Shown: positions 12,001-18,000 of the stretch, one piece after another
Position numbering within the stretch: the stretch's first letter is position 1
Layout: each line of letters starts with the position of its first letter
Origin: a virus
Lineage: Duplodnaviria; Heunggongvirae; Uroviricota; Caudoviricetes
Reading direction: 5' to 3' (one strand)
IMG/VR virus record: IMGVR_UViG_2534682161_000017
Location: 1-28,791 of that record
Length of the DNA stretch: 28,791 nt
Position numbers: made by a program

Positions 12001-15000
12001 TCGTCAGCCAGATATGTAATGACTACTGCCATGTTGACCTCCGATGATTGACTTTGGCGGTGACGCGCCGGGTGCTTATCTTCCGGTTGCCGTCGTGCAG
12101 CTGCACTTCACGTCACCCCAAAGCCAACTACTCTTTGGTTCCCGCATTTCGGCGGGACAATCCCATCAATGTTAAAGAGCCTGCCAATCTGTTCCGTTTG
12201 GCTACCAGCTTCCTGCTGATGGCTTAAAGATAACTTAGGTTATAGGTGTGGTCAATAACCTAATTTATATTTTGTGGTAAATAAGTTATAAGTGATGGAT
12301 AACAAAGGTATTTTATTTTTGTAAATGTTGCTGATTGATTGGTGTTTGAGGGCTTGCGTGCTGGGTGAAGGTGTTACCTTTGGCTTGATGCTTGTCTATG
12401 ATGAGGATGGTTGATTGGATGGTGAACGGCAGGGAAAGAAAAACCCGGCGCTGAGGCCGGGTGTTTTTAGTCCTTTCTGTTGCTTAGCATTTCGTCGATT
12501 TCTAAGTCAATACGATATTGATCTATTGATTTTCTCTCGTTTGGGGTTGGTATTTTATACTGTTCAATTAGATCTGTTGTGTATTTTATTTCATCTAATG
12601 TGATTTTTATATCAGAGAGAATCTCTTTTATATCAATTAGATGCTCTTCTTCTTTTGCGCGATTAGAGCTATGTTCAATCATTTGAGATAGCTTTTTGCT
12701 AATGCTTAGCAAAACAAAAAGAATGATGACCAAAACAACAACAAAAACTATCAGAAATTCCATTATCCCTCCGCACTTCCGTAAGTCTTCTTCTGATTAT
12801 CGGTTACCAACTATGAGACGACCAGAATACTCTGCCAATAATCCTTACGGTTTCATGAAATTCATCTCTATCCATTACTTCATCCGGGTACTCTTCGCGA
12901 TTTATTGATCTGATTATCACCGATGTAGGGGTGGCGATTAATGTTTTTACTCGTAACAAATCAGACTGGCAAATAGCGTAGGTTTTACCATCTCTGATTG
13001 TGGTATCTTGCGTGTTAACACCAACAACATCGCCATCGTGAAGCGTAGGTTCCATGCTTTGCCCTACAACCCTAACTAGCTTGGCTGATCTTTCAGATAC
13101 TCCCATCTTTTTCAGATAGTGCTTTCTGAAAACCAAAGAGAACTCCGATGATTCCTCTAGCTCGCAGCTACCGCTTCCAGCTGAAAGCGAAACGTTAAGA
13201 AGAGGCAACGCAACAAACTCGTCATCGTTTCTTTTAATGTCTTCCCATACCACAGCTTTTAAAGATGACTCACGGACATTGGATGGTTCTTCATGTGCAC
13301 CATCCCTCATTTCACCAATACCAGAACTAAGCCATTCAGGGCGCACTTTTAAAGCATTGGCTAATTCAACCATCTTGCGAGATCCGTTTGTTTTACCGGA
13401 CGACATCTTCTGTATGGCTGGCTGAGATATTCCAACCATGTCTGCAAGCTGTGATTGTGATACCCCAGCTAAGCTCATGGCTGCATTTAGTCTTTCTGCG
13501 AATGTTTTCATACCCACAAATCTATAACTACGGTTATCCAAAGTAAAATAACAAAGGTTATTGCTATTTTTTATAACTTGAGTTATCTTTGGTTATAATC
13601 AATGACCACAAGAGGTATGCTCATGAATTTAGTAATTCAACGAGCCTTGAAAATTGTCGGTAGCCAAAAGCGCCTTGCCGACAAGTGTGGTGTAACGCAG
13701 CCAGCAGTACACAAATGGCTGAAAGGCGGATTGGTCTCTCCAGAGAAAGTTACCGCCATCGTTAACGCCACTGGAGGGCAGATCAAGGCTTACGAAATTC
13801 GCCCCGATTTGCCACACCTGTTTCCAAAACCGAATCAGGCAGCATAAGTAACACCGCTCTTTAACAGTCATGGTCCTCATTCCCGCCGAAATGCGGGAAT
13901 ACAACGCGCATAAGTTGATGCGCATAACTTCTTATTTGTTAAGGAAATACTTACATATGGTTCGTGCAAACAAACGCAACGAGGCTCTAAGAATCGAGAG
14001 TGCGTTGCTTAACAAAATCGCAATGCTTGGAACTGAGAAGACAGCGGAAGCTGTGGGAGTTGATAAGTCGCAGATCAGCAGGTGGAAGAGGGATTGGATT
14101 CCAAAGTTCTCAATGCTGCTTGCTGTTCTTGAATGGGGCGTCGTTGACGACGACATGGCTCGATTGGCACGACAAGTTGCTTCGATTCTCACCAATAAAA
14201 AACGCCCGGCGGCAACCGAGCGTTCTGATCAAATACAAATGGAATTTTAACAACATCCAACGAGGTAATTATATGCGAAACAAAGGCTTTAATCCACCTG
14301 ATACACACAAAGAAGCTAAGCGTTTGCGCTTCCTTCGTTCCATTGATGAAAGAACTCAAATCTCTTTTGTGAAAGTTGCCAGAACTGAGCTTCTGAAGGC
14401 TGAGGCGAGGGCGTTGCTCCCGTCTCTACCAAAAGAGGAGGGATATACGTTCATTCCAAACGCATTTCTGGAAAAGCTTCTCAAAGAAGACATATCCGTA
14501 AGTCAGTTTAACGATGTTCTTAAGGTCTTTCGTCAAGGCAGGTAGTTATGAGCAATACAGCAAAAATCTACGATTTCAGCGCCGCACACGAGCGCAGGAG
14601 CAACAGGATGGAGAACCAGAAAACTGGTTACATTCCGTTGTACCGGAGCATTCTGAAACAGTCATGGGCGAAAGATGTTTATCTTCGCACCCTGTGGGAA
14701 AACCTTCTCCTGAATGCCGCCAGAAAGCCATACAAAGCGAATTTCAAAGGTCATGAATGGCATCTGCAACCCGGTCAACTGGTTGTGACAGCAGCTGATT
14801 TAGGTCTTCAGTTATGCGACAGGCATGGCAAGCCGGCAAGCCGTGATCAGGTTGAGCGGATGCTTCAGGTTTTTGTGAAAGAGGGGATGATCACCATTGA
14901 TGGAGAGAAGCAAAAAGGTCGTGTGATCACCATCACAAATTACCATGAATACGCTCAAAAAATGGACAATTCACCCGCACATGAAGCCGCACAAACAACC

Positions 15001-18000
15001 GCACATGATTCCGCACATGATGAAGCCAGTAATGGTGCGGCTTTCAGCGTACATGCCGCACATGAAAGCGCACATGAAGCCGCACAAACAACCGCACATC
15101 ATGAACAAGAAGGTATTAACAAGAATATAAATAATACCCCCTACCCCCCAATGGGGGAGGCGATGGGCAGGTTAAACCTGAACGTCGCAAGGCAGAACGA
15201 ATCGACTACGAATCCTTCCTGAACGCCTACAACACCGAAGTCGGTGACAGACTTCCACACGCTGTTGCGGTCAACGAGAAACGAAAACGCCGCCTGAAGA
15301 AAATCATCCCGCAGCTGAAAACGCCAAACGTGGACGGTTTCAGAGCGTATGTCAGGGCGTTTGTGCATCAGGCCAAGCCGTTTTACTTCGGAGACAACGA
15401 CACGGGCTGGACAGCTGATTTTGATTACCTGTTGAGGGAAGATTCGTTAACGGGAGTACGGGAAGGGAAGTTTGCAGACAGGGGGATTGCATGAAACAGG
15501 ATATCGAAGCGAGCGTTATCGGTGGCCTGCTGATTGGTGGATTAACACCAACTGCCAGTGACGTTCTGGCAACGCTGGAGCCGGAAGCGTTTTCAATTCC
15601 GCTCTACCGGAAAGCCTTCGAGGTTATCCGCAAGCAGGCGAGAAACAGAAACCTAATCGACGCGCTGATGGTTGCCGAGGCGTGCGGAGAGGAGCATTTC
15701 ACGTCAATCCTGATGACCAGCAAAAACTGCCCGAGTGCCGCAAACCTGAAGGGATATGCCGGAATGGTCGCGGATAACTTTCACCGCCGTCTGGTGCTGG
15801 AAATCATGGATGAAATGCGTGAACCAATTCAGAGCGGAACCATCGACGCATCGAGTCAGGCGATGGATGAACTTGTAAAGCGTCTTTCAGCCATCAGAAA
15901 GCCCCGTGACGAGGTAAAACCTGTACGGTTATGGGAAATCATTACTGACTACACTGACACGCTTGACAGGCGTCTGAGGAACGGAGAAGAGTCCGATACC
16001 CTGAAGACCGGAATCGAAGAACTTGATGCCATCACCGGAGGGATGAACGCAGAAGACCTGGTGATAATCGCTGCTCGTCCTGGTATGGGGAAAACCGAAC
16101 TGGCGCTGAAGATTGCCGAAGGCGTTGCAAGCCGCGTTATTCCTGGTTATGACGTCCGGCGCGGAGTATTGATTTTCTCGATGGAAATGAGCGCATTGCA
16201 GATTGCAGAGCGAAGCATCGCCAACGCCGGGAGGATGTCGGTTAGCGTGCTGCGAAATCCTGCATCGATGGATGACGAAGGCTGGGCGCGTGTTGCTAAC
16301 GGCATGAGTCAGCTTGCAGATTTGGATGTATGGGTAGTCGATGCCTCGCGGTTATCGGTCGAAGAAATACGCTCAATCGCAGAACGGCACAAACAGGAAA
16401 ATCCAAACCTGTCACTCATCATGGCGGATTATCTTGGCCTGATTGAGAAGCCGAAAGCAGATCGCAACGACCTCGCAATTGCTCACATCTCCGGAAGCCT
16501 GAAGGCGATGGCGAAAGACCTGAAAACGCCTGTTATCTCCCTAAGTCAGCTTTCGCGCGATGTTGAGAAGCGACCAAATAAACGCCCGACAAACGCAGAT
16601 TTGCGTGATTCAGGAAGCATTGAACAGGACGCAGACTCAATCATCATGCTCTATCGGGAAGCGGTATATGACGAGAACAGTAGCGCCGCGCCATTTGCTG
16701 AAATCATCGTGACGAAAAACCGTTTTGGCTCGCTTGGTACGGTTTACCAGCGGTTCTGCAACGGACACTTTGTGGCATGTGACCAGGATGAAGCCAGACA
16801 GATTTGCACAGCATCAAATGCACCTGCTGCGCGTGGCAGACGATATGCACAAGGGGCTGACGTATGACCATCTACATCACTGAGCTTGTAACAGGCCTGC
16901 TGGTAATCGCAGGCCTTTTTATTTGGGGGAGAGGGAAGTCATGAAAAAACTAACCTTTGAAATTCGATCTCCGGCACATCAGCAAAACGCTATTCACGCA
17001 GTACAGCAAATCCTTCCAGACCCAACCAAACCAATCGTAGTAACCATTCAGGAACGCAACCGCAGCTTAGACCAAAACAGGAAGCTATGGGCCTGCTTAG
17101 GTGACGTCTCTCGTCAGGTTGAATGGCATGGTCGCTGGCTGGATGCAGAAAGCTGGAAGTGCGTTTTTACCGCAGCATTAAAGCAGCAGGACGTTGTTCC
17201 TAACCTTGCCGGGAATGGCTTTGTGGTAATAGGCCAGTCAACCAGCAGGATGCGTGTAAGCGAATTTGCGGAGCTATTAGAGCTTATACAGGCATTCGGT
17301 ACAGAGCGTGGCGTTAAGTGGTCAGACGAAGCGCGACTGGCTCTCGAATGGAAAGCGCGATGGGGAGACAGGGCGGCATGAGACGACAGCGACGAAGTTT
17401 CACCGACATCATCTGCGAAAACTGCAAATACCTTCCAACGAAACGCTCCAGAAATAAACGCAAGCCAATCCCAAAAGAATCTGACGTAAAAACCTTCAAC
17501 TACACGGCTCACCTGTGGGATATCCGGTGGCTAAGACATCGTGCGAGGAAATGACAATGGATTATTCACAGTTAAGTGATTTTGAAATTAACAGAATGGT
17601 AGGAGACATAATTTTTAAGGGCCTTTGGGCATGTAAGCCGGAAACGTCAGGGAATAATACCAACAAATGGTATTACGGAAACGCTGATACAACTTTTGAG
17701 CCATTAAACCATTTACCTGACTACTGCAATGATCCGAGTGCCTCATGGCCGATTATTGAGAAACACAGGATTTCTATCTTAGACCAGTTAACTGAATGGT
17801 GTGTGGATGCAAAAGGCGTAAGCCCAATATTTGATACCAGACCTCTCCGCGCCGCCATGATTGTCTTTCTCATGATGCAGGACGCCAATAATGCTTAGCC
17901 CATCCCAATCCCTTCAATACCAGAAAGAAAGCGTCGAGCGAGCTTTAACGTGCGCTAACTGCGGTCAGAAGCTGCATGTGCTGGAAGTTCACGTGTGCTC

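Follow-up and report, generated by a model that had tools for sequence, protein, structure and literature searches.

A replication initiator gene split between two reading frames in a prophage of Escherichia coli STEC_7v: probable homopolymer undercall in a 454-only draft assembly

The subject of this study is an O-like replication initiator gene that is recorded in two reading frames in a prophage of Escherichia coli STEC_7v. The stretch of DNA analysed, hereafter the window, comprises 28,791 nucleotides (positions 1 to 28,791 of IMG/VR virus record IMGVR_UViG_2534682161_000017) and corresponds, by exact protein match, to AEXD01000007.1 of STEC_7v (strain 7V; O2:H25, stx2g, from cattle faeces). 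In all likelihood the two-frame split is a homopolymer undercall in a draft assembled from 454 reads only, the gene itself being an intact O-type initiator. During 454 flow sequencing the six C residues that begin at position 15137 would have been read as five, and the Celera consensus would have retained this error; the true DNA most likely carries one initiator open reading frame (ORF) of 315 codons, and we infer that the base is present in the strain's actual DNA.

As recorded, the gene consists of two overlapping pieces:

14548..15222, plus strand: first piece of the O-like initiator (224 amino acids), with an ATG start and a TGA stop at 15220..15222, comprising the N-terminal origin-binding domain, an iteron-encoded linker and an out-of-frame tail.
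15135..15494, plus strand: second piece of the O-like initiator, the C-terminal domain in the -1 frame, without a usable start codon.

The preliminary description of this DNA had placed a split O-like gene at 14548-15494, and the ORF maps together with the family matches of both pieces bear this out. The first piece carries the Pfam domain PF04492 Phage_rep_O in residues 20-132 (57.6 bits, cut-off 28.7) and matches phrog_345, 'replication initiation O-like', over profile positions 1-184 (E 8e-37), while the second piece matches the same profile over positions 180-295 (E 1.3e-58). Since both pieces match one family, they are not a chance pair of ORFs; in NCBIfam, neither fragment nor the intact protein found a match. 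The last 27 amino acids of the 224-residue product (PYPPMGEAMGRLNLNVARQNESTTNPS) are out-of-frame sequence, and the C-terminal piece has no sign of decay. The second frame was also described correctly as opening at 15135, lacking an ATG and closing in a TGA that overlaps the ATG of the helicase gene: it is open from 15135, directly after the TAA at 15132..15134, up to the TGA at 15492..15494, which shares the sequence ATGA with the helicase start at 15491. Its only potential starts are GTG 15330, GTG 15363 and TTG 15432, and no Shine-Dalgarno sequence was found upstream of any of the three. Both initiator domains lie in one continuous frame in every annotated relative, and not in the window. 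The start of the intact gene is annotated in two ways, as the ATG equivalent to 14548 in phage CUS-3 (315 amino acids) and as the ATG equivalent to 14608 in RefSeq (295 amino acids, with AGGAG upstream).

The difference between the window and its relatives comes down to a single base, and two features are needed to place it:

15137..15141: indel site, CCCCC in the window and CCCCCC in relatives, the only difference within the gene from the sister prophage.
15144..15157: inverted repeat CCCCCC-AAT-GGGGG, both runs of which are unchanged with respect to all relatives.

Alignment with the sister prophage (in E. coli MFDS1019527), phage CUS-3 and a Stx2a phage reveals one gap only, the sequence around it being otherwise the same, and all three have six C (C6) where the window has five (C5). 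Comparison with intact O-like genes, which the preliminary description had proposed as the way to find the indel, thus located it at 15137..15141. The interval 15135..15222, to which the frame switch had been confined, does hold the indel, but the two runs singled out within it, CCCCCC at 15144..15149 and GGGGG at 15153..15157, are the same in relatives. Every full-length DNA match spans 948 bases as against 947 in the window, and once the base is added back the encoded protein is identical to WP_086167014.1, known from 103 contigs; the deposited 224-residue protein (EGE66102.1 / WP_001360515.1) is known from one contig only.

The C5 allele is almost private to the window. Among complete E. 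coli genomes with full-coverage matches to a 90-base probe, 276 have C6 and none has C5, and the phage records divide in the same way (55 and 0). For viral and metagenome contigs the 31-mer of the window just right of the run was used as the query and run lengths were counted directly in the returned loci, giving C6 in 104 of 105 IMG/VR contigs and in 25 of 25 metagenome contigs. The best E. coli and phage matches all stand at 98.9% identity, which amounts to the one gap. Coverage of the initiator gene reaches at least 80% in just 272 of the 715 E. coli records, and the genome contigs collection, in which neither allele is present, is uninformative. Among approximately 460 relatives, C5 therefore occurs only in the window and in the single deviating IMG/VR contig, IMGVR_UViG_2529293142_000029 (L006).

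Flow-based sequencing is known for run-length errors. The STEC_7v assembly (AEXD00000000) was built solely from 454 Titanium FLX paired-end reads with Celera v6.0 (PMC3491183), and direct comparison of a 454 assembly has detected homopolymer errors in about 2.1-2.8% of genes, rising with run length (PMC3277595). With a few dozen genes in the window, a single frameshifted gene is consistent with this rate. The reads are flow-only, with no polishing by another method, the change is a private one-base shortening of a run, and another private run error accompanies it.

The most direct comparison is offered by an IMG/VR contig of 12,407 bases from IMG genome 2802429216 (L038), which differs from window positions 6809..19214 by no mismatches and one gap, the C run, where L038 has C6. 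Its first base lies within the IS2 copy (5555..6885 of the window), 77 bases from the right end of that element. Because L038 carries this insertion, which is absent from the sister prophage, the two sequences probably come from the same clone.

Against the wider population, only two indels set the window apart, those at 15137 and 22034. The second is likewise a shortened homopolymer:

22034..22036: second private homopolymer loss, GGG in the window and GGGG in relatives, located in the non-coding stretch that separates the lysis genes from the small terminase region.

The segment is present in 113 complete E. coli genomes, every one of which has GGGG and spans 102 bases to the window's 101, and the position was confirmed by alignment. 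As the site is non-coding and carries no annotation, the loss cannot be put down to selection on a gene. Undercalling in a 454-only assembly would be expected to leave just such a pattern, here two private shortenings within 7 kb.

Over window positions 11021..28791, two substitutions and seven single-base indels separate the sister prophage from the window. At five of the indels it is the window that carries the additional base or an unbroken ORF; four of these fall in the sister's lysozyme, terminase and portal genes, and the fifth (22441) lies outside annotated genes. As the three sister genes are annotated as frameshifted, the four differences that fall in them arose in the sister, through error or mutation. 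The genes in question, lysozyme (25955..26430), large terminase (28501..29998) and portal (29999..32165), are equivalent to 20977..21453, 23524..25023 and 25024..27189 of the window, where the copies are intact; the differences are single-base indels at short runs. Judged by the sequence, the frameshifts in the 'complete' MFDS1019527 genome are probably assembly errors.

The other C5 sequence, L006, encodes protein WP_001382325.1. Over 3.4 kb L006 and the window share 97.85% identity, which marks L006 as an independent prophage. Compared with several of its own closest relatives, L006 has an A6 run shortened to A5, a T6 run shortened to T5 and a frameshifted or split NinB, all within 5 kb (sites 2463..2920, 4702, 6573 and 6594). 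Systematic shortening of runs from six to five is a signature of flow sequencing, and L006 looks like an assembly with systematic undercalls of this kind. The finding of C5 in two drafts suggests that the C run at 15137 is itself easily undercalled.

Four points weigh against a sequencing error. First, the error is inferred from the assembled sequence. Second, Luo et al. observed that 454 homopolymer errors are skewed towards A/T runs, and the run here is of C (PMC3277595). Third, L038 may derive from another isolate of the clone, and a true deletion that occurred very recently in strain 7V would then give the same picture. Fourth, the presence of C5 in two independent prophages could mean that the run is a real slippage hot spot.

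The strongest competing explanation is a very recent and real deletion of one base by replication slippage in the C6 run, truncating the initiator after its origin-binding domain. The 224-residue product could then bind the iterons and could not recruit the helicase, the helicase would no longer be translationally coupled to it, and after induction the prophage would be defective in replication. Slippage occurs naturally at homopolymer runs, the deposited sequence reads as such a deletion would, the IS2 insertion is already present, so that some decay is under way, and a second prophage, L006, also has C5. Against a real deletion, the allele is absent from the approximately 460 relatives, L038, probably of the same clone, has C6 and nothing else different in 12.4 kb, the assembly is 454-only and contains another private run loss in non-coding DNA, and L006 is itself riddled with six-to-five shortenings. 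A genuine deletion is therefore considered unlikely. Should it be real, a trace of full-length initiator could still arise by a -1 slip on C-CCC-C. Sequencing error is preferred because the assembly is 454-only, the allele is private with respect to the relatives, L038 has the sixth C and a second private loss is present. Of the three alternatives that the preliminary description had left side by side (a base lost in a replication-defective prophage, a homopolymer sequencing error, or a translational frameshift), the loss of one base in a homopolymer is thus upheld, with sequencing error favoured as its source, while designed frameshifting is unsupported and the two-frame arrangement is not conserved.

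A variant of the deletion, in which the C6 run, located where the origin and the two initiator modules meet, is a real hot spot that repeatedly switches off replication, would have C5 arising independently in two prophages, with low-level -1 slippage of tRNA-Pro on C-CCC-C restoring the exact wild-type initiator and hence some leaky replication, so that the run would act as a reversible, contingency-like switch for prophage domestication. We regard it as very improbable. The six-to-five shortenings throughout L006 weaken the idea of a natural hot spot, and no variation in tract length was found among isolates across the approximately 460 sequences, in which C6 is invariant and both C5 calls come from error-prone drafts. 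A phase-variable homopolymer switch would be expected to vary repeatedly in length among reliably sequenced isolates, and such variation was not found.

Programmed recoding, by which the ribosome shifts to -1 on A-CCC-CCU (or RNA polymerase slips) to make the full-length initiator and the 224-residue product serves as a regulatory form, has an even slighter chance of being correct. On the one hand, a -1 slip of tRNA-Pro in the P site, from CCC at 15139..15141 to CCC at 15138..15140, gives the exact wild-type protein of 315 amino acids, and the RNA that follows immediately has a fold better than that of shuffled sequences (z = -3.8). On the other hand, the two-frame layout occurs in 2 of approximately 460 sequences, both of them error-prone drafts; the X-XXY-YYZ heptamer is absent, the zero frame A-CCC-CCU permitting a single P-site slip and not a tandem one; and the hairpin starts 2 nucleotides after the run, where a stimulatory structure would be expected 5-9 nucleotides downstream, overlaps the GC-rich element of the origin and is identical in all in-frame relatives. 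To our knowledge, transcriptional slippage in E. coli needs longer runs, of A or T.

The least probable account, two independently initiated proteins of which one binds the origin and a separate one recruits the helicase, can point to the ORF of 43 amino acids that gene callers placed on the C-terminal frame, but the GTG and TTG starts, which lack a Shine-Dalgarno sequence, yield at most 54 of the 118 residues of the C-terminal domain, and no relative has the arrangement, annotated relatives having one ORF of 295-315 amino acids; this account is rejected. Neither of the observations that the preliminary description had named as fatal to its own proposal was made: the search for an internal start with a Shine-Dalgarno sequence in the second frame came up empty, and no intact relative has a two-frame layout with two independent starts. 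Two other ORFs over the junction, one of 75 amino acids on the minus strand (15141..15368) and one of 61 amino acids in a frame through the iterons (14945..15130), were considered as alternative genes and rejected, as neither has a PHROG match. Across the junction the analysis found no promoter-like site and a single terminator-like site, no more than chance would produce.

The initiator gene contains within it an origin-like layout of the lambda type, a candidate by analogy. The features concerned are:

14975..15103: candidate origin iterons, eight CCGCACA-type repeats in a 12-bp phase, arranged in two groups of four inside the initiator gene.
15110..15136: A+T-rich stretch (82% A+T), candidate unwinding region, immediately between the iterons and the C run, its function being assigned by analogy with lambda-type origins.
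15491..16867, plus strand: DnaB-type replicative helicase (458 amino acids; Pfam DnaB_C 261 bits, DnaB 49.7 bits), called 'replicative DNA helicase' in relatives.

In lambda, ori lies inside the O gene and has direct repeats and, after them, an A+T-rich stretch. Seven of the eight CCGCACA sites on the plus strand of the window fall within 14975..15103. Translated, the repeats give the unusual linker 'AHEAAQTTAHD...' of the initiator, and one relative (P0007, 346 amino acids) has an additional repeat block. The A+T-rich stretch is followed by a GC-rich element, C5-TA-C6-AAT-G5. By analogy, the N-terminal Phage_rep_O domain would bind the iterons within its own coding sequence, and the C-terminal domain would recruit the phage DnaB-type helicase encoded directly downstream, the translation of which would be coupled to that of the initiator via the ATGA overlap. 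Of these two halves, the product as recorded would have only the one that binds the origin, without the one that recruits the helicase.

The two halves of the initiator have different affinities. Over the C-terminal residues 190-315 its identity is 97.6% with HK97 O and 60.5% with P22 gp18, and residues 3-143 have their nearest relatives, at 81%, in Klebsiella phages. The region around 15115..15160 (residue ~190) is the junction of these two exchangeable modules and lies beside the indel site. Many 'partial' initiators at NCBI end at NNTPLPPNGG, which implies that contigs break in the same GC-rich element, and in two variants of 206 amino acids divergence sets in directly behind NNTPL, possibly as a result of insertions or recombination joints.

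The remainder of the prophage is that of a P22-like (Lederbergvirus-type) element integrated beside ybhC, with integrase, a cI/cro/cII region, initiator, helicase, nin genes, antiterminator, lysis cassette, terminase, portal, scaffold and capsid. One of its early genes is interrupted:

5555..6885: complete IS2 copy (1331 bp, IS3 family) inserted in an ead/Ea22-like early gene, with target duplication GCGCC at 5550..5554 and 6886..6890.

The sister prophage, which lacks this insertion, has an IS3-family element at the point equivalent to 11021 of the window. The transposase frames of IS2 (5601..6011 and 5969..6874) overlap at an A6G motif, AAAAAAG at 5963..5969, which is the classic site of programmed -1 frameshifting in IS2 and hence a genuine recoding site in the window. 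On the minus strand, 3505..4710 forms a continuous ORF of 401 amino acids, and the identical sequence in the sister is annotated as three partial DUF551 pseudogene fragments.

The practical meaning of the split gene is one of caution. One miscalled base would have been enough to create the 'truncated replication protein' entry EGE66102.1 / WP_001360515.1, and the scoring of prophage intactness, pseudogenes or recoding from the STEC_7v assembly would mislead. A real deletion would amount to no more than an ordinary inactivating mutation of a single prophage, and no new biology would follow in either case. The truncated protein is matched along its entire length, out-of-frame tail included, by phrog_27581 ('unknown function', 216 positions; E 6e-118), and the intact initiator matches positions 1-199 only; this family appears, from the matches, to have been built from frameshift-truncated initiators of draft genomes.

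The gene is a well-known kind of initiator, and its split is not novel. Gene O of phage CUS-3 (CP000711.1, ABQ88421.1) is 98% identical to the window at the nucleotide level over all 947 bases, and the gene is shared with phages JEP4, Gally and HF4s and with many Stx2a-converting phages. Genes of the CUS-3 type agree with that of the window in their iterons, A+T-rich stretch and GC-rich element and in being followed by the same DnaB-type helicase gene, whose start overlaps them; they differ in having a continuous ORF of 315 codons with six C, whereas the window has five C and two frames. The protein of P22 gene 18 and HK97 O share the C-terminal domain with the window, and each gene adjoins a DnaB-like helicase gene (gene 12 in P22); their N-terminal origin-binding domain and iterons are of another specificity type. 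Lambda O and ori-lambda share the Phage_rep_O N-terminal domain and an origin inside the initiator gene, with repeats and then an A+T stretch. In lambda, however, the partner is a lambda-P-type loader of the host DnaB, while in the window it is a phage-encoded helicase, and the four iterons of ~19 bp in lambda contrast with the eight repeats in a 12-bp phase found here. As for the split itself, it has the form of the homopolymer errors of Roche 454 sequencing, namely a single-base undercall in a run of six, an artificial frameshift and a 454-only assembly; no difference in kind from these was noticed, and what is unusual is that the same run appears to have been miscalled in the L006 draft as well.

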